In this document: one piece after another, positions 1-13,204 of the stretch
How the letters are laid out: every line of letters begins with the position of its first letter
How positions within the stretch are numbered: the first letter of the stretch is position 1
DNA from: an uncultured Gammaproteobacteria bacterium
GTDB lineage: Bacteria; Pseudomonadota; Gammaproteobacteria; CAWCPV01
Assembly: GCA_963797555.1 (NCBI GenBank)
Contig: CAWCPV010000009.1
Location: 192,001-256,000, forward strand
DNA: 64,000 nucleotides
Reading direction: 5' to 3'
Notes under the pieces: generated by a model
Databases searched by the model: none
What the model saw: the letters and a program-made list of their open reading frames with translations, nothing else
What the model was told of the DNA's origin: nothing
Position numbers and translations under genes: made by a program

Positions 1-206
1 AGGCACGCATTGGTTGGGCGAGGGATGGCGTGCCCTGGAACCGTATTAACTTCGCCAGGGCCAGCCCCCTGTGCAAAGCGAACCACGAGCAAGTGTCTCC
101 AAGTGCCCACAAGATTTCACAAGGCTGGACCTGACCCCGGTCCTCGGTCCTACAAGCGTCTTCGGGCGTCTACAAGATGGGCAGCTAGCAGCCCCGCCTT
201 ACCCGA

Positions 207-509
207 CTAGCCCCTTCGTCGCTGCCATTCTGCCGGATCGCGACTCACGTGAAGCACCGCCAGCACCACGATCACCTCGCCCTCAACGGCGAAGTAGACA
301 GCGTACGGGAAACGGTGCGCCAGCGCTCGTCGGATCCCCGACCGCAAAGGCTGGTACTTCAGTGGCCCATCGACAACTCGGTCGTACGTCGCACGCAATT
401 CGTCCAGGAACTCCCGACCGAGGCCAGCTTGCTCCTTCTCGTACCAGTCGAACACTGCCGCAACGTCCAGATCGGCTTGCGGCTGGGCAACAAGCCGATA
501 CTCGGTCAC
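207..509 (-). CDS. RelE/ParE family type II toxin
   Basis: 100-aa ORF with ParE-like pattern (WYEKEQAGLGREFLDEL...RFPYAVYF...VLAVLHVSRDP); overlaps the upstream antitoxin by 4 nt. Confidence 0.85.
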   Translation of the reverse strand: MTEYRLVAQPQADLDVAAVFDWYEKEQAGLGREFLDELRATYDRVVDGPLKYQPLRSGIRRALAHRFPYAVYFAVEGEVIVVLAVLHVSRDPAEWQRRRG

Positions 510-739
510 CGATCTTGCTTAGCGAGGCGATCCAGCGCCTCATGTGCCGGCTGTGCACGGCTTGGATCTCGGCGGTACTCAGCAAGCCGCTCTTCGGCGA
601 GTTTAAGGTGCGTCTCCGGGACCGGAATTTCGCCTGGCCTCTCGGCGATACGGTCCCAGAGTGCTTGCAGGTAGCGGATTTGCTCGGCCTTCGAAAGATC
701 GCTGAACCCCATGGGTTCCGGAAGCGTAGTAGGTTGCAT
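506..739 (-). CDS. Putative addiction module antitoxin (TIGR02574-like)
   Basis: 77 aa, LSKAEQIRYLQALWDRIAE...HLKLAEERLAEYRRDP, typical of antitoxins paired with ParE toxins. Confidence 0.75.
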   Translation of the reverse strand: MQPTTLPEPMGFSDLSKAEQIRYLQALWDRIAERPGEIPVPETHLKLAEERLAEYRRDPSRAQPAHEALDRLAKQDR

Positions 740-819
740 GCGTTACCCTCGCCATCAGGCTAACCCTAACCCATATCTCATGATTAGATAGATTAGATTG
801 CATCATCCCTCCGGGCTCC

Positions 820-910
820 GCGGTGGGGGCGCCGGTTAGCCGGCGCCCCCCGCTGTCCCCGCCGTGCAGTTTTCCGGCGCCGGGTTCCTCGGTTGCACTC
901 GTTAGCGCGG
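820..910 (-). mobile_element. Group II intron 3' end remnant (domains V-VI)
   Basis: Minus strand reads GAGGAACCCGGCGCCGGAAACTGCACGGCGGG (degenerate DV), then the GGGGGCGCCGGCTAACCGGCGCCCCC hairpin (DVI). Confidence 0.6.
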
Positions 911-1171
911 CTTCGAGTCGAAAAACGCTAGATTACAAGACCTGACCCTCACGCGTGTGCGAGCCACACCCCCGTCAGAGCCTCATGCTACCCTTCTGAC
1001 GGACTCCCGTCACCTGCATAAATCCGATGGTAGACCCGCACGCGTGTGTGCTATCATTGGGTGCCTCCGATAGGGGAGGTTCCGGGTTGATATAGACTTG
1101 CAAACTACCGTGTTTAAGGTGTATTGGCCGTTAGGCGTCATCTTGTATTTATTCTACGGGGTTACTCCGGC

Positions 1172-1483
1172 ATGACAGACATTCAACACACACACCTTGT
1201 TTATTTGCGACAGTCCGTAGAAGAACCATGCCTTTCTTTTGTTCGCTATCAATGCGCCTCGTCTCCTTCGAACTACGACAAAACAAAAACAGATATATTT
1301 CTGTTATGCACAGATGTCGATGACCAGCACCCATACTACTTAAGCGTGACTGCTCACTATAATGAGAACGCAACAAGAAAACTTAAGATTCCGCATAATC
1401 TTGTTTTGATGATAGTCGAGGACCCGCATACTCCCGGAGAGCCACGCCTTTCATTTGGATTTGTTCCGCCTTCACCGGAATAA
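1172..1483 (+). CDS. Hypothetical AT-rich protein, possibly cassette-like
   Basis: ORF 1124-1483, first ATG at 1172; much lower GC than the core genes; GTTAGGC core-like site at about 1130. Confidence 0.4.
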   Translation: MTDIQHTHLVYLRQSVEEPCLSFVRYQCASSPSNYDKTKTDIFLLCTDVDDQHPYYLSVTAHYNENATRKLKIPHNLVLMIVEDPHTPGEPRLSFGFVPPSPE

Positions 1484-1584
1484 TCATCTTCGCTGCTTCC
1501 GGGCGGTAAAGTCCACACGGAACCACGCACCCGAATACCACTACGAGTGCGCAACTATCCATACAGAGATGCCACGCGATCTCG

Positions 1585-1650
1585 GCCATGCGTCGATTCG
1601 TCCCCGGCTCCCCGCAGAACCGGACTTGGAGGGTTACACCATCCGGCTCC
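1585..1650 (-). ncRNA. Group II intron domain V and start of domain VI
   Basis: Minus strand GAGCCGGATGGTGTAACCCTCCAAGTCCGGTTC directly at the end of the RT/maturase ORF. Confidence 0.75.
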
Positions 1651-2360
1651 CAGTTTGAGCCTTCCACCAAGGGATGGGATAGAGGTCATGGAGGATGCGA
1701 GCCACCGGCAACAAAGGACGAATGACCGCGCCGAAACGTTTCCAGGTCAATGAGCGTCGTTGGCTGCGTCGGTTCAGCCATTTGAACAGCAGGCCCGTGG
1801 CGAAGTACACGTACCCCGCCACGCCCCGACTATTGCCGCTGACGCCGTAATACTGGAGGTGGCCCCGGAGATGGCGGCCGACATAAGCCACCATGGCCGC
1901 TCCGCCCTGTGCCCGCAGGCCGCGCAGTCGCTCGCTCAGTTGCTTGAGCTTCGTGCGCACCCGCTTGGCGTCGGTCCGGCGTCCGACCACGAATCGTCCG
2001 CTGCGGCTGCACCCCACATAGTGGGTGAAGCCGAGAAAGCTGAAGGTCCGCGGTCCCTGGCTATCCCGGGCTTTGCATCCCAAGGCCTGACGGCCAAACT
2101 GCAGGAGCGCCGTCTTGCTCGGTTCGACCTCCAGGTCGAACTGCGCCAACCGTTGCGTCATCTCCATTAGGAAACTCCGCGCGTCGGCTTCCTGCTCGAA
2201 ACAGGCGACGTAATCATCGGCGTAACGAATCAGGTAGGCTTTGCCCTAACAACCCCTGGCGAAGCGTTTCTCGAACCAGAGGTCGAGCACGTAGTGCAGG
2301 TAAATGGTAAATGTTACTGAGTACGGGCGACACCAGTCCCCCTTGCGGGGTCCACCTCAG
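1634..2360 (-). pseudogene. ltrA: Group II intron reverse transcriptase/maturase, 5'-truncated and broken
   Basis: TPQGGLVSPVLSNIY, AYLIRYADDY (about 2207-2240), FSFLGFTH and the maturase WLNRRSQRR motifs lie in different frames with stops. Confidence 0.85.
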
Positions 2361-2401
2361 TCTATTGTCCTTTCCAATCCCATGAAACTTCTCCTCCGCG
2401 T

Positions 2402-2650
2402 TCACTTCACCTTTTTGATGACCGGCGGCTTCCAGGTGCCGTCGAGGATGGCCTGGTCGGGCCAATAGGCGCGGAGCCAGATCGAGAAGTTCCCCACCGG
2501 CGCGGGCAGCCAGTTGGATTCCTTGTCCTTGCCCGGCGACGTGTTGCCGAGATAGATCGTCAGGCCGCCGTCGGGGTTGTACTTCAGTGTCTTGTTCTTC
2601 GTGCCGAGCGCGAAGCGCTTCAGCGCGTTCGGGTAGAAGAAGTGCGCCGG
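2402..2650 (-). pseudogene. DUF1254/DUF1214 protein C-terminal fragment
   Basis: Own translation: [31 protein letters not shown]...[20 protein letters not shown]...GTWKPP; no start codon. Confidence 0.7.
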
Positions 2651-2664
2651 GTTGGAGCGATAGT

Positions 2665-2838
2665 GGTCAGGTCTTGCAATCCAGCAGCATACAAGTAGTG
2701 GGGCCTAGTCTTGCACAGGCGTCGAGTCGCAAAACGCTAGATTACAAGACCTGACCCTCACGCGCCCTCACGCGCTAGATTACAAGACCTGACCCCACGC
2801 GTGTGTGACCCCACGCGTGTGGACCCCCACGCGTGTGC
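2665..2838. repeat. GGTCAGGTCTTG-type inverted repeat cluster
   Basis: GGTCAGGTCTTGCAATC (2665-2681) pairs with GATTACAAGACCTGACC (2740-2756); a further copy at about 2774-2796; tandem CCCCACGCGTGTG units; near-identical copy at about 915-957. Confidence 0.7.
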
Positions 2839-3331
2839 GATTCCGCGAACCAGCAGATCCAACGTAACGGTCAAGGCATAAGCACGGCCCGGCACGAGGT
2901 GACGGCGGTAGAGGACGATTCACAACCCGCGCGCCAACGACGACAGGATACACACGGTAGCCCGGATGGAACGAAGTGGAATCCGGGGAGCGGAAACCGG
3001 CGCCATTCCCAAGATGCTGTCGTCTCCCTCCCCGTCTGTTCCGCTGCAACCCTGTCCCTCAATTCTGCTGGGCTCCATCGAGGCTGCGAGTTACGGACTG
3101 CGCTCGCTTCCGCGTCATCAAGCTCGCGGATGAGGCGGTCAACGTGTTGGCCGCGAGGAGTCAAGCCTGTCCTGCGCTTGTCAAAGGGACCGGGCGCGCA
3201 TGGTGCCTCAAGGAGGCACAGGATGTTACAAGAATGGACCAGACCCTAACCCGACGAGGCATTGAAACTCGTCGGCCGGCTATGGCGGGGCGGGATTCGA
3301 CAAGAGTCCTGCCCTTGCTATAGTAGGGGCT

Positions 3332-3456
3332 ATGGCAAAGGTTCCCGGCAAACTGCAGGTGACTATCCCAAGGCGGTCGCCGAGCGGTTGGGCATTCGCC
3401 CCGGGGACAAGATGGATTGGGTGCCCGCCGGCGACGCCATCCGCGTCGTTCCCTAA
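3332..3456 (+). pseudogene. AbrB/MazE family antitoxin, frameshifted
   Basis: MAKVPGKLQVTIP continues in another frame as KAVAERLGIRPGDKMDWVPAGDAIRVVP. Confidence 0.65.
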
Positions 3457-3723
3457 GGCGCTGCGCCGGCTGCCCGCGCCGTGCAAGAACGGCTTCAGAG
3501 ATTCGACCAGGCCACCGAGCGCCAGCGTGAGCGCGAAAGGCAGGAACCCGCGGCACTCGCCGAAGCTCGCGTCTGGACCCGAGACCAGCTCTATTGAGGC
3601 TTGCCGGGCGGGGCGAGCTGCAAAAGGGCACCACAGAATTCGGTGCGCATGTGTTATAAGGTTAGACCTGACCCTGAAGCCCTTGCGGACATAGCCTAGC
3701 TGCTGACTACCTTTTGGAGTGAC

Positions 3724-4548
3724 ATGAACCTTCTCGATGAACTCGTTCGCCGCTGCAGCGATGTAATATCCCTAGCGGAAGGCGGTCAGAAGAAGGTACT
3801 TGCGGCGGTCCACCCAGAGTTCGGGCCTGTGGTCATCAAGTATGGCGAGTATCGCTACTCGTCAAGTCTAGAGCGCATCTCGCGGGAAGTCGCCCTTCTG
3901 CGAGAGATTGAGTCCCGGTACTATCCCAAGCAGTACGAGTTCCTGATCGAGCCCGTCGATCGAGTGTTTCTCGTGGTTGAAGAGCGCCTCGACGCAGTTG
4001 AACTGACGCGGGTGAAGAACCGCTTTTCCTCCGATGCCGAGATTTCGGGCCTATTGGCTCACTTGGTCTGTGCTTTGAATGTGATCTGGCAGCGCAACGT
4101 TGTTCATCGGGACATCAAGCCCGCAAACATCTTGATTACGTGCGACAACGAGCCAAGAATCATTGATCTAGGAATTGCGCGTTTCCTCGATGACACGTCT
4201 CTAACTGCAAGTATCGCCGGCCGCGGTCCTGCAACTCCGATCTATGCGGCCCCTGAACAGTTGGTCAACAGGAAGGCGATGATCAATGTGCGCACAGATT
4301 TTTTCTTGCTTGGTATTCTCGTGTTGGAGTTAATGCACGGCTTTCATCCGTTCGACCCGCAGCATGTTGGCAATCAGAATAGTCTCTTAGAAAACATCAT
4401 GCTCGGCAGTTACGTCCCAGTTGATCAAGATCGGGACGGGCGGTTAGTTGGCTTCGTAGAGCGGGTGTTGCAGACACAGCCGTTTAAGAGATTGAGGACT
4501 GTGGACGCACTGATGACTCAGCTCCGAATGGATCGTCAATCATGCTGA
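3724..4548 (+). CDS. Hanks-type Ser/Thr protein kinase, catalytic domain only
   Basis: GGQKKV loop, VVIK, HRDIKPANIL, DLG and TPIYAAPE motifs. Confidence 0.92.
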   Translation: MNLLDELVRRCSDVISLAEGGQKKVLAAVHPEFGPVVIKYGEYRYSSSLERISREVALLREIESRYYPKQYEFLIEPVDRVFLVVEERLDAVELTRVKNRFSSDAEISGLLAHLVCALNVIWQRNVVHRDIKPANILITCDNEPRIIDLGIARFLDDTSLTASIAGRGPATPIYAAPEQLVNRKAMINVRTDFFLLGILVLELMHGFHPFDPQHVGNQNSLLENIMLGSYVPVDQDRDGRLVGFVERVLQTQPFKRLRTVDALMTQLRMDRQSC

Positions 4549-5228
4549 TCTACCACCAATGTGGACATAACTTCATCTGGGATATTCAGTCGCTCCAGGC
4601 TGACTACACTGGCGATGGATTGATTATATCTCCAGTCAACGTGGAGGCGGATCGTGTACGGGATCGGGTACCGAAGGACATTCTAGCCAAGAGCTGGATG
4701 GATCCCCAATTCTATTTGTTGCACGATAGCAAGGGCAAGCTCGCCACGTATCCGTTCTTCCCCGGCAACGTTCTGGACGACTTTACGACTGCCGAGTTCG
4801 TGAGCCACGCTCCACAAGTGGCCGAAGAATGCCTGGCCTTTCAGCATGAGCTGGGACTTAGGTATTCGGTCATTCCAACCAGGTACTTCGAGGATCTGCC
4901 CGGCGATTATTTAGAACAGCTAAGTTCACTGTTCGTCGAGCCCTTTATTGAAGCCAAGCATGCACTGGGGCTGACTGAGCCCCTGCTGCTTACGGTGATC
5001 GCCAAACCGCTGCATATCTCGCCCGGGCCTATGCGGGACGAACTGCTTTCGTGGGCAACCAGCTACGAAGATGTGGCCGGGATCTACCTGCTTCTTGACA
5101 ACAACTTTTACTCCAAGCAAATAAAGGATCCCGGGTACCTTGCTGGGGCGCTGAGGTTCGTACGCGCCCTCCGGCAGAATGACTTAGAGGTGCATCTTGG
5201 GTATTGTGGGTTGGAGGGTCTACTTTTG

Positions 5229-6743
5229 GGCTCTTTCGGTAATTGTGTGGATCGTGGTGGTCGAGTAGCATCCGTTCTGAGCAATCGTCTATCACAACAT
5301 CTTGTGGTTGGGCCTGTGGGGTTGTGGGCGAGAGGCCCGCGAGTGTGGGCAACCGGGAGGTTGTCCACACGGTCCTTGGGACGCGGGCCGCTCCGCAGGA
5401 CTCGTCCACAAATCCACAGGCCATCAAGGGGGGAGCGCCATGGAGCCAACGCATCTATTCACGACGGCACTGGGCCTCACGGCGCCTTGGGAAGTCACCG
5501 GCGTACGCTTTGACCCCGAGGCTGGGCGCATCGACCTCGAGGTGGCCTTTGCCAAGGGGAGCCGCTTCGCCTGCCCGGCGTGCGGAGTGCCAGGCCAGCC
5601 GGTGCATGATACCCGCAAGCGCAGCTGGCAGCACCTGAGCTTCTTTAAGTCACGGGCAGACCTGCACGCGCATCTGCCGCGAGTGCGCTGTGAGAGCTGC
5701 GGCAAGACGACTCAGGTCGAGCCGCCGTGGGCGCGCGCACACAGTGGCTTCACCGCGCTGATGGAGGCACTGGTGGTGACGCTGTGCCAGGCGATGCCGG
5801 TGGCGACCGTCGCCCGGCACCTGGGCGTGGGCGATGAGCGCCTGTGGGGGGTGCTCGAGCACTACGTGGAGGCGGCCCGCGCCCAGGAGGACCACTCCCC
5901 GGTGCGCGCCGTGGGCCTGGACGAGACCGCCGCCCGGCGTGGGCAGCACTACATCAGCCTGTTCCATGACCTCACGGGAAAACGCCTGCTGTTCGCCTGC
6001 GAGGGCCGCGACCAGAGCACCGTGGCGGCCTTTGCCGCCGACCTCCAGGCGCACGGGGGCGACCCGCAGGCCATCGAGCAGGTGTGCATCGACCTGTCCG
6101 CCGCTTATCTCGCCGGGGTGACCAAGCATCTGCCTAAAGCCACGGTGAGCTTCGATGCCTTCCATGTCATCCAGCTCGCCAACCAGGCCGTCGATACAGT
6201 GCGCCGCGAGGAGGTCAAGACCGAGCCCGCCCTCAGGGGCACCCGCTGGACCTGGCTCAAAGACGCCCACGACTGGACCTGGGAGCAGCTCACCGACTTT
6301 CACTGGCTCTCCCGCGCCCGCCTCAAGACCGCCCGTGCCTGGCGCCTCAAGGAGGCGCTGCGCGATATCTACGCCACGGCCAGCACCCTCGAGCAGGCCG
6401 AGAGCGCCCTCGGGCGCTGGTATAGCTGGGCACGGCGTAGCCGCCTGCAGCCCATGAAACGCCTCGCCACTACCCTGAAAGAGCACTGGGACGGCGTGCT
6501 CGCCGCATTCCACTCCGGCCTCACCAACGGCCGCGCCGAGGGCATCAACTCCCTCATCCAGGCTGCCAAAGCCCGCGCCCGAGGCCACCGCACCACGCGC
6601 TCGCTCATCACCATCGCCTACCTCATCGCGGGCAACCTGGCCCACTTGCCGGCCTTGCCGTTCAACACACGATCTTGTGTCAGACCTCAGGCAGAGGCTG
6701 CCGCAGCGTAAGCATATCTACCCACACGATTCCGGTAAGAACC
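5229..6743 (+). mobile_element. ISL3 family insertion sequence, 1515 bp
   Basis: Imperfect IRs GGCTCTTTCGGTAATTGTGTGG / GGTTCTTACCGGAATCGTGTGG; 8-bp TSD TACTTTTG at 5221-5228 and 6744-6751. Confidence 0.93.
5440..6711 (+). CDS. ISL3 family transposase
   Basis: Zn-finger CPACG...PRVRCESCG, GLDET, CIDLS, FDAFHV and TNGRAEGINS motifs. Confidence 0.93.
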   Translation: MEPTHLFTTALGLTAPWEVTGVRFDPEAGRIDLEVAFAKGSRFACPACGVPGQPVHDTRKRSWQHLSFFKSRADLHAHLPRVRCESCGKTTQVEPPWARAHSGFTALMEALVVTLCQAMPVATVARHLGVGDERLWGVLEHYVEAARAQEDHSPVRAVGLDETAARRGQHYISLFHDLTGKRLLFACEGRDQSTVAAFAADLQAHGGDPQAIEQVCIDLSAAYLAGVTKHLPKATVSFDAFHVIQLANQAVDTVRREEVKTEPALRGTRWTWLKDAHDWTWEQLTDFHWLSRARLKTARAWRLKEALRDIYATASTLEQAESALGRWYSWARRSRLQPMKRLATTLKEHWDGVLAAFHSGLTNGRAEGINSLIQAAKARARGHRTTRSLITIAYLIAGNLAHLPALPFNTRSCVRPQAEAAAA

Positions 6744-7230
6744 TACTTTTGTCATTGGCGGACCCTACCTCCGTTACCGTTGGTTCTTACGAAAATCTGC
6801 GGTCATTTGGAACGCTACGTCTCGAAAGCCGTGAGCCGAGGATCCGTCGTGGACCGCGACCCAGAATCTACTCGGGTCGCCTCATACAATGGGTCGAAGA
6901 CACCTTCCTGCCTCCCCTGCGGCAGCTCATGCCGGACTGGCGGGACTACTTTGACGATTCACCATACAAAGACTACCTCCTCGATCCCCACAGCTTCCTT
7001 AGTTTTCAGCGGTCAGAGATCTACAAGCACTATTTCTTTATTTTTTCTCGGCAAATAGAGGCGCTTCCCGCTGTTCCTCAGCGTGCCGGCTACTTAAGTG
7101 GCCGGGTGACGGAGGCTCTGGAGCTGTTCGAACAGATTAGGGCAGCACGTGTGTTCCTGGACTCAGACTCCGACTACTCGCATCTACCCGGATGGTTGAA
7201 CGCCATTGCGATGTTCCAGGAGCAGCCGGA

Positions 7231-7848
7231 ATGACACAAACGGCGAGCGGCTTCCAGTCAGAGGCTGCACTGGTTCAGAAAGGTCGGCGGCTCATACGTG
7301 GCGCCCTCCGAAACGTAGATGGACAAGTCCGGACGCGCTACGAGTTACCGGCCCCGGGTGCGGTCCCAGATTTGGTGATCTTTAGCAAGAGTTCCAACGA
7401 GGTGCAGTATGTGATCACCGTTGAATTCAAGCTTAGTGACTGGCGCCGAGCTATAACTCAGGCATTCCGCCATCGCAACTTCGGAAACGAGGCTTATGTA
7501 GTACTCGATCAGGCTCGATCGGCTGCCGCCGTTCGCCACGTTGATCTCTTCGAAAGAGCAAACGTTGGTCTAGTAACGGTTGATGCGGAGAATGTGGTAA
7601 GGGTATGGCATTACCCACAGCCTGGATTGCCCTTCTCGTCACAGTTTTCCCGCGCGGTGGCACGGGCACTTCTCGGCTCGCATCGAACGGTTCCAGCCGA
7701 CCCTCCTTTCGTTCGAAGCATTCGTGGTGGGATAGCCCTTGCGGGGCTGAGGAGGACTTGGGGCTCACCGCAACACGCCCCGTCGGCGGCATCATCCCCG
7801 GTCGGGCATGGCACAGCAAAAGGGCTTACGACGCCTACTCATTCGTAA
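7231..7848 (+). CDS. PD-(D/E)XK nuclease-like protein
   Basis: E...VPDLV...VEFKLSDWRRAITQA...AYVVL...NVGLV pattern; ATGA overlap with the previous stop. Confidence 0.65.
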   Translation: MTQTASGFQSEAALVQKGRRLIRGALRNVDGQVRTRYELPAPGAVPDLVIFSKSSNEVQYVITVEFKLSDWRRAITQAFRHRNFGNEAYVVLDQARSAAAVRHVDLFERANVGLVTVDAENVVRVWHYPQPGLPFSSQFSRAVARALLGSHRTVPADPPFVRSIRGGIALAGLRRTWGSPQHAPSAASSPVGHGTAKGLTTPTHS

Positions 7849-7875
7849 CTGCGGCAGCGAAATAATTCGACCCTG

Positions 7876-7984
7876 GCCCAACGGATTGCGCTTAACCTTC
7901 CGGGTGCGGCGGCCGCAAGCAAGACGGACTACCATCTTGGCAGGAGGGGCCGCCGCACCCGGCAGCTTCAAGTGCGTATTATGC
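7876..7984 (+). repeat. Degenerate attC-like site
   Basis: GCCCAAC start, perfect 15-bp inner stem CCGGGTGCGGCGGCC/GGCCGCCGCACCCGG, ends ATTATGC (one change from GTTATGC). Confidence 0.55.
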
Positions 7985-8286
7985 GGCGACTCCCCGGCCG
8001 TGACTGTGCGTTTCGGATCGCTGCATTGATCGTGTCGAGGAAGTCGTCGTCTAGTTGGCGGATGCCGCGTATCGGCCACGGGAATGCCGTGCTGCCTTAG
8101 ATACGTTGCCAACTTGTACCTAAAAGGTCAGATTCCAGACTAGCCGCGCCTGGCGGTCCGGTCAAGGGGTCGCCGCACAACAGATCGTCCAGTAACTGGA
8201 GCCGCGTGGTTACAGGACACCGGCCGCACCACCCACGAGCCAGGCGAGCGTCCCTGTTCGGGCGCCGAAGATTCGATCGAAGCCGC

Positions 8287-9204
8287 TTACCCCTCCTGCG
8301 GAGCGTCGTAGCGCTCGTCGAACTGCTGGGCCTCGCTCTTTTCCGCCTGTCTGCGTTCGGCGAGCCGCTCCCGCGCGCGCTCCAGCCGCTTCTCCCGCGC
8401 CCCCTCGCGCAGCGGGATGGTGTGCTCTCCGAACAGCACTTGCTTGAGAAAACGGAAGGCGAAGCACAGCAATGCTTCTTCGTCCGCCAGGAGCTGCCGC
8501 TGCGTCTCCGCTTCCAGGTCGAAGACTTCCTGGAAGCCGGGGCTCTGGACGAACTCGCGGAAGCTGTCCGGGTCGTAGCTGCACATGTCGAAAAGCTGCA
8601 TGCTGCGCTCCGTCGGCTTGCCGACGGTCGGGCCGCTGGAGCGCTTTTTGATGACGATGTCGCGCCACTCGGCGTTCATCTCGTCGTACTTGTCGACGCC
8701 CTGCTCCTGGCGGTACGCCCTCACGGTCAGGCGGCGGGGCTCGAAATGGCCCAGGCAGTGGGCTTCTCTGACGAGGAAGTAGATGTCCTCGACCTGCGCG
8801 CTTTCCTTCTTGCGCACTCCCATGCTCCCCAGGGCGTAGTAACGGCAGGCGGCAGGCCGGTCCTCGTAGACGCCGCAACCTTCCTCCGTGAGGAACACAC
8901 ATTCCTGGGTGCCCGGCTTGGTGAGGAGCTTGAGACCAGGCATGCCGAGGTGGTCCATCTCGAACGGCACGCTGTACCGGGCGACGAACTCCCTGGACAG
9001 CATTCCCAAGCGCTGCTTGAGCCGCAGGATGTCGTAGGGCGTCAACTGGATGTCGATGCTCTTGCAGCACGCGTTGAAGCAGGCGATTCCCTTGTGGCAA
9101 TCGAACTGGATGGTGTCGTCCAGTCCCAACTGCACGGGCTCGATGGGGCTGCGGCTGGGAAGATCGAAGGGCTTTGCCGATAGCTCGTCCAGTGCTTCTG
9201 ACAT
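8287..9204 (-). CDS. YkgJ/FliB family cysteine-cluster protein
   Basis: CHKGIACFNACC, CVFL...CGVYEDRPAACRYY and HCLG motifs; directly downstream of aprA. Confidence 0.85.
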   Translation of the reverse strand: MSEALDELSAKPFDLPSRSPIEPVQLGLDDTIQFDCHKGIACFNACCKSIDIQLTPYDILRLKQRLGMLSREFVARYSVPFEMDHLGMPGLKLLTKPGTQECVFLTEEGCGVYEDRPAACRYYALGSMGVRKKESAQVEDIYFLVREAHCLGHFEPRRLTVRAYRQEQGVDKYDEMNAEWRDIVIKKRSSGPTVGKPTERSMQLFDMCSYDPDSFREFVQSPGFQEVFDLEAETQRQLLADEEALLCFAFRFLKQVLFGEHTIPLREGAREKRLERARERLAERRQAEKSEAQQFDERYDAPQEG

Positions 9205-9326
9205 ACGTGCTTACTCCCGGCGGACGCGCCTGGTAGGGGGGATGAGTAAAGCATACAACGAGTACTGGTGGGAGCCCAGCGTGACGGCGGAACGGCTCGC
9301 GGAGCACTGCCTGCAGAGAACAGAAG

Positions 9327-9354
9327 GGCCGGGCGCCCTCTGGGGCGCCCGGCC
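9327..9354 (-). terminator. Hairpin downstream of aprA
   Basis: 12-bp stem GGCCGGGCGCCC/GGGCGCCCGGCC followed by a pyrimidine run on the minus strand. Confidence 0.5.
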
Positions 9355-9379
9355 TGCGGTACCCGCCCGTGCGGGCGTC

Positions 9380-11356
9380 CTAGACTGCAGCAGCCGGCCG
9401 CGAGATTCCCTCGGGCTCGCCGGGGGCCGGTTTGATGAGCTGCTTGTACGCGACCTTCTTCAGGTTCCACTTGCCGGTGTTGCGGTCGTAAACGGAGTTC
9501 ACGAAACACTTCCAGTTCTGGTCGTCGATCTTCATGAAGTCCGCGCGGTAGTAGTAACCCGGATAGCGGGTCTCCTCGCGGAACTGGATGTGCTTCATGT
9601 GCGCTTCCGCGGCGATGATGCGGTGATAGTTCTCCCAAGCGCGGAGCAGCTCGTGAAGGTCCTTGGCCCGCATCTTCAGGGAGTCTTCCTTGAGCATCTG
9701 CAGCTTGCGCTCGGCCACCTCCAGCATCTTGGCGTTGGTCTGGTAGAAGGTCGAGGTGCCGCCCACATACTCGTCCATGATCTTCTGCAGGCGGAACTGC
9801 AGCATCTTGGGGGTGATGTAGTGCGGGTTGATGTCGATGGCCGTGGTGTAGTCCTTGTGCTCCAGGAAGGTGCGCACGGGACGGTAGATCTCTTCCAGCA
9901 GCTCGTCCACCGAGCGCGCCATCTCGGGCTTCCAGGTCTTGTTATCCATGACGAACTTGACCATGGCCTTGGCGGCGATGCGCCCCTCGGTATGGGACCC
10001 GGAGGAGAACTTGTGGCCGGAGGCGCCGACGCCGTCGCCCGCGGTGAACAGACCCTTCACCGTGGTCATGCGGCTGTAGCCCCAATGATAGTGATCGGGG
10101 GTGCCGGGGATGTCCGCGGGACCGGAGACCCAGATGCCGGCGCATCCCGCGTGGGAGCCGAGCAGGTAGGGCTCGGTGGGCATCAGCTCGGACATCTCCT
10201 TGTCGGGCTCGATGTTCTCGCCCGCCCACACGCCGCACTGGCCGATGGTCATGTCCAGGAAGTCTTCCCAAGCCTCGGCCTCGAGGTGCTTGATCTCCTT
10301 GGGAGTCATGGTCTCGGCCAGCTTGGCCATGGCGCTCGGGGTATCCATGAGGATGGGACCGCGGCCTTCCTTCATCTCTTTCATCATGAGATGGTTGCGC
10401 AGGCAGGTTCCCATCTTGGCGCCTTCGGCATATGCGTCGTAGCCGTGGTCCTTGAGGATGTGGGCGTTCTTGGTCTGGTAGTCCTCGCCCATGGCGTTCA
10501 TGGCCTTCGCCTTGAACAGCAGGAACCAGGCGCCCACCGGGCCGTAGCCGTCCTTGAAGCGGGCCGGCACGAAGCGGTTCTCCATCATGGTCATCTCGGC
10601 CCCGCACTCGGCCGCCATGGCGTAGGTGGAGCCCGCATTCCACACCGGATACCAGGCGCGGCCCGTGCCCTCGCCTACGGAGCGGGGACGGAACACGTTC
10701 ACGGCGCCGCCCGCGGCCAGCAGACAGGCCTTGAACTTGTAAATGAACAGCTTGTTCTCGCGGACGCTGAAGCCGGCGGCACCCGCGACGCGGCTCGGAT
10801 CGTTCTTGTCGGTCACCAGGCGCACGATGAACACGCGCTCCTCGATGTTGTCCATGCCGAGCGCCTTCTTGGCCGCCTCGGCCACGATCCACTTGTAGGA
10901 CTCGCCGTTGATCATGATCTGCCAGCGCCCGGAGCGCACCGGCTTGCCGCCCTCGGTGAGGCGCTTGCCTTCATCGCCGGGCTGCTTCCACACCGGCAGG
11001 CCCCACTCCTCGAAGTGGTGGACGGAGTCGTCCACGTGACGGCCCACGTCGTACACCAGATCCTCGCGGATGATGCCCATCAGGTCGCCACGCACGTAAC
11101 GCACGTAGTCGGCCGGGTCGTTCTCGCCCATGTAAGTGTTGATGGCCGAAAGACCCTGCGCCACAGCCCCGGACCGGTCGACGGCAGCCTTGTCCACCAG
11201 CTTAACCTTGATGTCGACACCCTGCTGCTTGGCCTTCTCGATCCAGCGCATGACCTCGAAGGCGGCGCCGCAACAGGCCATGCCGCCGCCGATGAGGAGG
11301 ATATCGACCTCTTCTTCCACAATCTGTGGGTTACCGAACCCGTATTGATCTGCCAT
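9380..11356 (-). CDS. aprA: Adenylylsulfate reductase alpha subunit
   Basis: RSGAVAQGLSAINTY, WQIMINGESYK, GHKFSSGS and EETRYPGYYYR motifs. Confidence 0.98.
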   Translation of the reverse strand: MADQYGFGNPQIVEEEVDILLIGGGMACCGAAFEVMRWIEKAKQQGVDIKVKLVDKAAVDRSGAVAQGLSAINTYMGENDPADYVRYVRGDLMGIIREDLVYDVGRHVDDSVHHFEEWGLPVWKQPGDEGKRLTEGGKPVRSGRWQIMINGESYKWIVAEAAKKALGMDNIEERVFIVRLVTDKNDPSRVAGAAGFSVRENKLFIYKFKACLLAAGGAVNVFRPRSVGEGTGRAWYPVWNAGSTYAMAAECGAEMTMMENRFVPARFKDGYGPVGAWFLLFKAKAMNAMGEDYQTKNAHILKDHGYDAYAEGAKMGTCLRNHLMMKEMKEGRGPILMDTPSAMAKLAETMTPKEIKHLEAEAWEDFLDMTIGQCGVWAGENIEPDKEMSELMPTEPYLLGSHAGCAGIWVSGPADIPGTPDHYHWGYSRMTTVKGLFTAGDGVGASGHKFSSGSHTEGRIAAKAMVKFVMDNKTWKPEMARSVDELLEEIYRPVRTFLEHKDYTTAIDINPHYITPKMLQFRLQKIMDEYVGGTSTFYQTNAKMLEVAERKLQMLKEDSLKMRAKDLHELLRAWENYHRIIAAEAHMKHIQFREETRYPGYYYRADFMKIDDQNWKCFVNSVYDRNTGKWNLKKVAYKQLIKPAPGEPEGISRPAAAV

Positions 11357-11448
11357 TGCTACTTTCCCTCTGTCTTACGAATCCAACGCGGACCCGCCTC
11401 GACGAGGTCCGTGTCCCGCATAACGGCGGTGCCGAAGCGCGCAGCCGC

Positions 11449-11913
11449 TTAGCCTGCCGCGAACTGGCTCGTGTCGCAGGTGTGGGTGCCCTTGGTGAAC
11501 AGTGAGCCGTGGTCGGTGATCTCGCCCAGGTTCGCGTCGGGCTTACCCGCATAGGGCTGGATGGAGCCTTCAGGGGTGGTGCGGATGGGGAACTTGAACC
11601 GCTTCATGTTGCCGTTGCGGAAGCGGATGGTCCACATGATGGAGTCGGACCCGCGCAGCGGCTGCACCATGGCGCCGAGCGGCACCACGTCGGCGTAGTG
11701 GCGCACCTCGATGGCGTTCTGCGGGCAGATCTTCACGCAGGAATAGCACTCCCAGCACTGCTCCGGCTCCTGGTTGAAGGCTTTCATGGCGTGGCCGGTC
11801 AGCGAGCCATCCTTGTCCAGCAGCATCAGGTCGTGGGGGCAGATGTACATGCAGGCGGTCTTGTCCTGACCCTTGCAGCCATCACACTTGTCGGTACGTA
11901 CGTAGGTGGGCAT
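11449..11913 (-). CDS. aprB: Adenylylsulfate reductase beta subunit
   Basis: CDGCKGQDKTACMYICP, CWECYSCVKICP and KRFKFPIRTT motifs. Confidence 0.98.
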   Translation of the reverse strand: MPTYVRTDKCDGCKGQDKTACMYICPHDLMLLDKDGSLTGHAMKAFNQEPEQCWECYSCVKICPQNAIEVRHYADVVPLGAMVQPLRGSDSIMWTIRFRNGNMKRFKFPIRTTPEGSIQPYAGKPDANLGEITDHGSLFTKGTHTCDTSQFAAG

Positions 11914-11985
11914 CGAACTCCTCCGCGTCAGTTGACTGCAACACCACTGGTCGGTACGACCGGCGGATCGTTAAGAACGTAACGG

Positions 11986-13204
11986 TCAGCGGGCCGAATG
12001 ACCCGTCAACTTGACCTCGACCTTCTCGTGCTCGGCGAGACTTCCGTAATACTTCCGCAGGACGGCGAGCACCTCCGCGCGGCTGAACTCGGCCGGCACT
12101 TCCCCGCCCTCGGACAGAGCCTTGCGGAGCTTGGTGCCGGACAGCAGCAGCCGGTCCTCGGCCCGATGCGGGCAGGTCTTCATGGAGGCCATGCCGCCGC
12201 ACTTGTAGCACCAGAAGGTCCAGTCGATCTTGAGCGGCTTGGTCTCCAGCGCGTCCTTGGGAATCTCGTCGAAGATATGGTGGGCGTCGAAGGGGCCGTA
12301 GTAGTCGCCCACGCCGGCGTGGTCACGGCCGACGATGAGGTGCGAGCAGCCGTAGTTCTGGCGGAACAGGGCGTGCAACAGCGCCTCGCGCGGCCCTGCG
12401 TAGCGCATGTCCAGGGGGTAGCCGGCCTGCACCACGGTGTTCTTCACGAAGTAGTTTTCCACCAGGGTGTTAATCGCCTCGGCGCGCACCTCGGCGGGAA
12501 TGTCACCCGGCTTCAGCTTGCCGAGCAGCGAGTGGATCAGCACCCCGTCGCAGATCTCCACCGCAATCTTGGCGAGATACTCATGGGAGCGGTGCATGGG
12601 GTTGCGCGTTTGGAACGCGGCGACCGTGCTCCAGCCCTTGGACTCGAACAGCGCCCGGGTCTGGGCCGGGGTCATGTAGATATCGGGGTACTTGGTGGGG
12701 AATTCCCCTTGGGACAGCACCTTGACCGGACCCGCCAGGTTCACCTCCCCCTGCTCCATCAGCATCTTCACGCCGGGGTGGCCGCCGTCCGTGGTCTTGT
12801 ACACCATGACAGCTTCGTGCTCCTTGTCGATGGTGTACTTCTCGGTGATCTTCATGGTCGCCAGGGTCTCGCCGCTCTCGCGGTCCACCAAGGCGACGTT
12901 CCGAGCCGACCTTGACCGAGTCGGCCGTGGACGGGTCCGTCGACAGGGTGATGGGGATCGGCCAGAACAGACCGTTGGCGGTGTGATAGCCGTCACACAC
13001 CCCTGCCCAGTCGGCCCGGGTCATGAACCCTTCCAACGGGGTGAAGCCGCCGATACCCATCATGATCAGGTCTCCCGTCTCGCGGGAAGAGATGTGCACC
13101 TTGGGCAGGGTGGCGGCGCGGGCTTGCTCTTGCTCCAAGCGCTCGCCGGTAAGCAGCAGCGGCTTGAGATCTCCCCCGCCGTGGGGTTTCACTAGCTTCG
13201 ACAT
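11986..13204 (-). CDS. sat: Sulfate adenylyltransferase with one apparent frameshift near 12900
   Basis: N-terminus [10 protein letters not shown]...FWPIPITL in one frame; [20 protein letters not shown] and VGRDHAGVG in another. Confidence 0.93.

Follow-up and report, generated by a model that had tools for sequence, protein, structure and literature searches.

What is the small three-gene operon that lies near the start of this stretch of DNA, and could it be, as a first-pass annotation made from the letters alone had proposed, a candidate for a defence system that has yet to be described? The stretch, hereafter the window, comprises 64,000 nucleotides (positions 192,001–256,000 of contig CAWCPV010000009.1) from an uncultured gammaproteobacterium. 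The operon encodes a Hanks-type Ser/Thr protein kinase (K), a protein predicted to fold as a triosephosphate isomerase (TIM) barrel of the tRNA-guanine transglycosylase (TGT) kind (M), and a PD-(D/E)XK nuclease (N). We find that K-M-N is a real, conserved and horizontally mobile three-gene cassette, and that the copy in the window is dead. As to its function, we favour, at odds slightly better than even, a role in the conflict with mobile elements.

Conservation and mobility of the K-M-N cassette

A pattern scan covering one genome per species yielded 67 loci, in which open reading frames (ORFs) were called and then queried with the kinase of the window and with M and N profiles. The three genes are adjacent, and in the order K-M-N, in 59 of these loci; a contig end interrupts seven of the other eight, and the last (L063) is a truncated remnant. 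Thus, the co-occurrence in other genomes that the first-pass annotation had named as a check on its reading is indeed seen. The carriers come from more than ten phyla, the record titles including Bacteroidota, Chloroflexota, Acidobacteriota, Ignavibacteria and Chlorobi, together with Verrucomicrobiota, Spirochaetes, Bacillota and Desulfobacterota and, among the archaea, Aenigmatarchaeota and Methanocellaceae. M was not found in 40 relatives of the window genome from the same class.

Compared pairwise over 26 loci, K, M and N have correlated identities (r of 0.90, 0.79 and 0.80; Mantel p of 0.001 each). Because related carriers share ancestry, this co-variation speaks for joint inheritance and transfer of the three genes, and not for binding among their products. 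Complex prediction on K, M and N of L002, run with alignments and with M as the partner, gave scores of 0.74, 0.78 and 0.74; these became 0.00 and 0.00 when M was replaced and 0.72 when the kinase was replaced, so that the score is not pair-specific and may come from the retained chain; we count it neither for nor against binding.

The strand of N is that of M everywhere except in a divergent branch (L064–L067), in which M is ~22–25% identical. N converges on M there, with an overlap at the end of M, and carries a winged-helix-like insert. All four loci of this branch (4/4) also have a PP2C phosphatase gene beside N, on the opposite strand and preceding it. For the phosphatase (e.g. L067, 7786–8445, minus strand) a match was obtained to the PADLOC candidate model PDC-M21C (1.3e-15), and M and N match nothing; a literature search for PDC-M21 found no paper.

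The window copy and its insertion sequence

In the window, both the ORF list and the sequence place K, M and N in the same direction, and the genes are coupled by overlapping stop and start codons, just where the first reading had put them. Gene K (3724–4548, plus strand), encoding 274 aa, is apparently intact and matches Pfam Pkinase with an E-value of 2.8e-29. The ATG of M lies at 4542 and the stop of K at 4546–4548, an overlap of 7 nt. At the other end, the stop of M and the ATG of N overlap in ATGA at 7231–7234, and gene N (7231–7848, plus strand; 205 aa) is apparently intact as well. The operon without its insertion sequence (IS) has a G+C content (GC) of 54.7%, compared with 65.0% for the window, in line with the lower GC initially reported; values equally low are seen in 4% of 1-kb windows.

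Gene M, in contrast to its intact neighbours, exists as two pieces. The 5' piece (4542–5228, plus strand) holds codons 1–229 of the TGT-fold barrel protein and covers positions 1–228 of the family model, and the 3' piece (6752–7234, plus strand) holds codons 230–389 with the stop and covers model positions 225–388. Between them sits a 1515-bp IS of the ISL3 family (5229–6743, plus strand) with its transposase at 5440–6711 (DDE_Tnp_ISL3 at 4.4e-71, HTH_Tnp_ISL3 and Zn_ribbon_ISL3). The insertion is bracketed by a target-site duplication, the exact 8-mer TACTTTTG being present at both ends (left copy at 5221–5228, right copy at 6744–6751). The terminal inverted repeats of the element are imperfect, with 16 of 22 positions matching in a manual count. 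A scripted join of 4542–5228 to 6752–7234 gives 1170 nt, or 389 codons and a single stop at the end, and three alternative joins of the pieces are all out of frame with four stops each. The split middle gene of 389 aa had been proposed at the outset on precisely this ground, and removal of the ISL3 element together with one copy of TACTTTTG does restore a single frame.

How old is the damage? Across the 5.3-Mb assembly the element is matched 45 times, and 15 of these matches are full-length at 98–100% identity, the window copy included; an older ISL3 set of 86–92% identity is found in the same genome. M is single-copy there and present as the two pieces only. Given the intact duplications and the near-identical genomic copies, the insertion in M looks recent. 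The cassette in the window has been inactivated by one of many active ISL3 copies, and the overall picture suggests that the IS is still spreading through the host genome and disabling genes as it does so.

Protein M

The window M being broken, the fold was computed on a close homologue, P0001, using a 30-sequence alignment. The resulting model (predicted local distance difference test, pLDDT, 86.1; predicted template-modelling score, pTM, 0.88) is that of a (beta/alpha)8 barrel with the C-terminal hairpin of the TGT family and a helical extension, and in the fold search it came out nearer to TGTs than to other barrels. Judged by this predicted structure, M has the fold of the TGT/DpdA/Cap10 superfamily, and it belongs to no described sequence family.

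The family itself is large. A word-based search returned 174 homologues of M, almost all of 386–397 aa and the best 79% identical, and an exhaustive profile search gave 892 representative clusters (50% identity) at E <= 1e-3 and 571 at E <= 1e-10. Conserved residues line the pocket at the C-terminal ends of the barrel strands, namely H5-Q6-G8, D54-P-Q56, P112-T-R114, K192-Q193, G220-Y221 and G240 to R246. In the wide family, D54 alone among the acidic residues is nearly invariant, E243 being invariant in a narrower set only. In alignments of 60 and 27 members, H5 and H374 are the only invariant histidines, and there is no invariant or near-invariant cysteine.

Described families offered no counterpart. 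Pfam gave no match for the two M fragments or for 30 and 60 full-length members of the family; for PF01702 in particular the count among full-length members was 0/30 at E <= 10 and 0/60 at E <= 1. M matches no model in NCBIfam, PADLOC 2.0.0 or PHROGs, and tblastn against 50,697 phage records returned two chance matches only, at E 6. In a protein atlas, no common Pfam family appeared in the three matches shown or in the set label of the 30 nearest. A search of proteins of 726–2070 aa turned up no fused form of M, which is weak evidence. A canonical housekeeping Tgt is encoded separately from M in the same genome (C7:553979–555034; PF01702 at 2.2e-159).

Kinase K and nuclease N

K is a bare kinase domain of ~270 aa. 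The HRD, DLG and APE motifs are present in the window protein; among 27 aligned cassette kinases, the GGQ loop, R51, R54, E55, H128-R129-D130, K132, N135, D148, G150 and P177-E178 are invariant or nearly so, and the VAIK lysine, K39, is nearly invariant. K thus carries all the hallmarks of the Hanks type (VAIK Lys, alpha-C Glu, HRD...N, DxG and APE), which together with the Pfam match upholds the original Ser/Thr kinase call, and by these motifs it is probably active as an enzyme. Its best PADLOC matches are to generic kinase models (mad6 at 8.9e-29 and PD-T4-6 at 7.4e-27), and it falls far below the curated cut-offs of NCBIfam for MAD6 (73.4 vs 460 bits), PglW (20.9 vs 990) and Stk1/PknB (69.8 vs 450).

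N has a restriction-endonuclease fold with the catalytic residues E...(P)D...(D/E)xK, a full catalytic triad; both fold and residues are what had been guessed from the PD...EFK pattern. It matches none of the models of PADLOC 2.0.0, Pfam, NCBIfam or PHROGs.

Genomic context and decay of the cassette

The 442 ORFs flanking the loci were clustered by all-against-all BLAST, and cluster representatives were annotated by Pfam and PADLOC. Genes of type I restriction-modification (R-M) systems adjoin the cassette in 15 of the 67 loci, typically in the arrangement hsdR-cassette-hsdS. An HsdR gene ends ~15 nt before K in 12 loci (ResIII, EcoEI_R_C, HSDR_N and PADLOC REase_I on representatives), an HsdS-like gene starts ~10 nt after N in 13 loci (Methylase_S and PADLOC Specificity_I), and an HsdM gene is located further downstream in 8 (N6_Mtase and HsdM_N). 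In the nested examples, such as L015, L025, L029, L031–L033, L040, L042 and L047, the gaps measure ~10–20 nt, as if all the genes were on the same transcript. A tyrosine integrase flanks five loci (Pfam checked on L043).

The cassette has decayed more than once. In L004, on a Vicinamibacterales chromosome, M is split by a 5.2-kb element at 767–6000 with three consecutive tyrosine recombinases and an IS66 transposase fragment; both there and in the window, the disruption of M has left N, and K as far as it can be seen, intact. All three genes are damaged in L006, and M is frameshifted in L049 and L055. Such recurrent loss is in keeping with an accessory system that carries a cost. The disrupted alleles in the window and L004 mean that M is dispensable for viability. 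Moreover, since alleles with M destroyed persist with K and N intact after two independent insertions, M is probably no simple antidote. The element in L004 resembles the 'recombinase in trio' type.

Neighbourhood of the window copy

Downstream of the operon, at 7900–7962 (plus strand), is a hairpin with a 15-bp G+C-rich stem and a 33-nt loop, lacking a T tract. It folds as DNA with -39.2 kcal/mol (z of -2.98) and is single-copy in the genome; Rfam has no match for it, and a terminator scan did not call it. The first-pass annotation had described the site as attC-like. It lies outside any array and, in a window in which no search for IntI was made, we see in it only a unique hairpin. Scans of the locus for promoters and terminators gave nothing that exceeds chance, and no tRNA gene was found in window positions 1–12000.

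Upstream of the cassette there are a ParE/antitoxin pair, encoded by overlapping genes at 207–739 on the minus strand (ParE_toxin at 4.2e-09, Unstab_antitox at 7.2e-11), and a MazE-like fragment at 3262–3456. Between them, 1563–2167 (minus strand) gave a weak Rfam match to group II intron domains (25.3 bits vs a gathering score of 40; E of 0.12). By eye, the adjoining 177-aa ORF resembles the C-terminal portion of the reverse transcriptase/maturase of an intron, and Pfam has no significant match to it; together the two are possibly an intron remnant. Further to the right, 9380–12996 (minus strand) holds genes that resemble by eye those for the alpha and beta subunits of adenylylsulfate reductase and for a sulfate adenylyltransferase (aprA, aprB and sat). 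If so identified, they would imply that the host bacterium cycles sulfur. A word search for expression or population data listed a single DNA run, in which the share of words was 0.09; no RNA run was listed.

Discussion

What, then, might the cassette do? We propose, with a probability of about 0.55, that K-M-N is an undescribed anti-mobile-element (anti-phage) module with M as its hub or activator, N as the executioner, and K as a gate or a second effector. We infer its defence role, the division of labour among the partners and the substrate as follows. M would engage a target that bears a nucleobase, be it a base in invading DNA, a base in tRNA or a base-derived ligand, and would be required to switch the system on. 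N would then act by cutting nucleic acid, and K would either gate the system through phosphorylation or serve as a second effector, with the PP2C phosphatase as a possible reset in the one divergent branch. A more specific version can be drawn, in which M excises or exchanges bases in phage DNA or host tRNA, N receives the nucleic acid so damaged, and K (with PP2C in the divergent branch) is the switch. The cassette would in that case perform a phosphorylation-gated base-excision restriction, and its targets could be, for example, the 7-deazaguanine-type bases that shield phages from the surrounding type I R-M system. We regard this version as tentative and, in so specific a form, unlikely.

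Several observations weigh against the proposed anti-phage module and should be set out together. The case for defence is one of guilt by association, through the R-M nesting, the integrases, the patchy distribution and the low GC. The same division applies to the defence module of the first-pass annotation: its conserved trio, its TGT fold and its nuclease stand, and its defence role is argued by association only. There is no R-M neighbour in 52 of the 67 loci, and in the Flavobacterium loci the cassette is found amid housekeeping genes (a beta-lactamase-family gene, SufS and SufD), where it looks like an inserted islet that gives no functional hint. Among the recurrent neighbours of the 67 loci there are no queC/D/E, folE, dpdB or dpdC-like genes.

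The chemistry of M is a second point of weakness. TGT/DpdA enzymes have a structural zinc site, formed by a Cys3-His cluster, and a pair of catalytic aspartates, one the nucleophile and the other the general acid. The M family has no conserved Cys/His zinc cluster. In hhalign, M against 25 Tgt sequences reached a probability of 0.2, and a profile search of the PDB returned 0 matches. The early guess of a TIM-barrel, TGT/DpdA-like enzyme thus holds at the level of fold, by the P0001 search, and fails at the level of sequence. With no significant similarity to TGT sequences or profiles, no zinc cluster, and D54 as the only acidic residue of its kind, base-exchange chemistry of M is unproven. Finally, the argument from M-null alleles presumes that K is expressed, and two insertions are few given that M is the largest target; for N the argument is weak, because both insertions may have polar effects on that gene. 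As for the frameshifts in L006, L049 and L055, errors of assembly may account for them.

An alternative reading comes from a preprint of October 2026, which unifies beta of phage P4 (PF14350, 'TIM-B') with the deazaguanine transglycosylase fold and describes TIM-B systems as a variable effector gene, then TIM-B, with a linked restriction-endonuclease-fold gene that is convergent in P4 (10.64898/2026.10.19.760177). Were K-M-N a toxin-regulator (abortive infection) unit of this type, as gop-beta-cII of P4, the barrel would constitutively restrain a toxic kinase by means of either a covalent base modification or a small-molecule product. The nuclease would be a second effector, and infection would lift the brake. 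The architecture of effector, TGT-like barrel and restriction-endonuclease-fold gene is the same as in the preprint, and in L064, L066 and L067 N is convergent, as cII is in P4, and overlaps the end of M. Kinases are known as toxins or abortive effectors (HipA, Stk2 and PD-T4-6). When the N alignment (A2) was compared by hhalign with six cII-like proteins, D...ExK...Q fell in register, but with a probability of 0.2 and an E-value of 0.33, which is not significant. The barrel, moreover, is not detectably TIM-B. PF14350 finds P4 beta at 4.3e-56, yet 0/30 and 0/60 members of the M family and nothing in the window genome, and hhalign of the M alignments A1 and A5 against a 10-member PF14350 alignment (P4 beta and nine PF14350 proteins) gave probabilities of 0.1 and 0.2. 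The 'beta-family' lead of the first reading, taken as P4 beta, has thus given no significant match. In addition, a kinase is not among the TIM-B effectors of the preprint's main text, and M-null alleles with an intact upstream kinase, seen in two lineages, are not expected of a constitutive antidote. On balance, we consider a restrained toxic kinase unlikely.

Two further readings may be considered. M might insert a modified base (e.g. 7-deazaguanine) in host DNA, with N cutting unmodified incoming DNA and K in a regulatory role, which would make the cassette a Dpd-like R-M system. No DpdB-like ATPase, DpdC or preQ0-synthesis gene recurs beside the cassette, however, and M has neither the zinc site nor a PF01702 signal. 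Abortive or type IV genes are the more typical occupants of a type I R-M operon, which itself modifies DNA; and loss of the modifier with N intact, as in the window and L004, should kill the cell unless N is silenced. This makes a Dpd-like system quite improbable. The cassette could also lie outside immunity, as an accessory regulatory, nucleic-acid-repair or tRNA-modification module that travels on mobile DNA. TGT-fold enzymes are after all classically tRNA modifiers, many loci lack a defence neighbour, and no defence model matches M or N. Nevertheless, the patchy, trans-domain distribution, the low GC and the absence of M from the 40 relatives searched are at odds with such a role, as are the repeated nesting between hsdR and hsdS, the repeated decay, and the constant presence of a nuclease with a complete catalytic triad. 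We would accordingly place little credence in it.

Should the anti-phage proposal be right, protein phosphorylation would be linked to nucleobase chemistry in defence, and the cassette could reveal a new nucleic-acid-modifying or base-excising activity. Cultivable carriers, such as Flavobacterium potami, F. fluviatile, Parabacteroides gordonii DSM 23371 and Bacteroides timonensis, would then be available for such work. For the genome in hand the practical point is smaller, its copy being dead.

Comparison with known systems

The first-pass annotation recognised no named system in this combination, and the PADLOC run agrees, for neither M nor N has a model in the four databases above. A full-text literature search, in which most subscription journals were absent, found no paper on a trio of kinase, TGT-like protein and nuclease. 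Taken singly, the components do have relatives or analogues. K resembles Stk2, PD-T4-6, PglW (of BREX type 2/Pgl) and MAD6 (of MADS) in that it, too, is of the Hanks type and has a complete catalytic core; no other Pgl, BREX or MADS component recurred among the flanking genes of the 67 loci. With respect to position, PrrC in EcoprrI is a defence gene nested in a type I R-M operon. The cassette is similar in that it adjoins hsd genes in 15/67 loci, and differs in that its proteins are unrelated and show no sign of guarding the R-M enzyme.

M compares with the TGT superfamily (Tgt, DpdA, and Cap10 of type IV cyclic-oligonucleotide-based antiphage signalling systems, CBASS) in fold. It differs in its sequence, being 8–12% identical to these proteins and having no PF01702 match and no zinc cluster. 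Enzymes of this fold have lately come to light in immunity in two settings: deazaguanine is inserted into DNA by DpdA and joined to a CBASS enzyme by Cap10. Unlike these two, M has no linked genes for QueC/preQ0, DpdB/C or a cGAS/DncV-like nucleotidyltransferase (CD-NTase), its partners being a kinase and a nuclease; the partners of the Dpd R-M system (DpdB/DpdC, restriction genes and preQ0 supply) are likewise absent from the recurrent neighbour clusters of the 67 loci. Cap10 sets the precedent that proteins, in addition to nucleic acids, can be modified by a protein of the TGT fold (10.1101/2025.04.06.647259).

The closest likeness in layout is to the TIM-B systems. In P4 the order is gop (247–648, plus strand), beta (651–1718, plus strand) and cII (1746–2540, minus strand). 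In both cases, an effector gene is followed by a co-directional gene for a TGT-like barrel and then by a gene for a restriction-endonuclease fold, the last being convergent in P4 and, for N, in L064–L067. K-M-N is, moreover, also small, mobile and found in conflict contexts. There are nevertheless clear differences. The barrel of K-M-N comes from a different sequence family, with no PF14350 signal and a profile-profile probability of <= 0.2. N is co-directional in most loci and has no long C-terminal extension. The effectors given in the main text of the preprint are Gop, PAACC, HigB, a restriction endonuclease, Pol-beta, GNAT, sirtuin, RES, caspase and 2TM-B, and a Hanks kinase is not listed there; a regulatory role is predicted in the preprint for the P4 beta family (10.64898/2026.10.19.760177). 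The M-null alleles with K intact speak against a pure antidote role for M. The cassette is thus TIM-B-like in layout, and by these sequence comparisons it falls outside the TIM-B family. We hold the interpretation of the first-pass annotation to be largely right, and see in the cassette an undescribed variant within an emerging class of conflict systems centred on the TGT fold. M would add to this class a third, large TGT-fold family without a Pfam entry, 892 clusters strong at 50% identity, and paired with a kinase and a nuclease.

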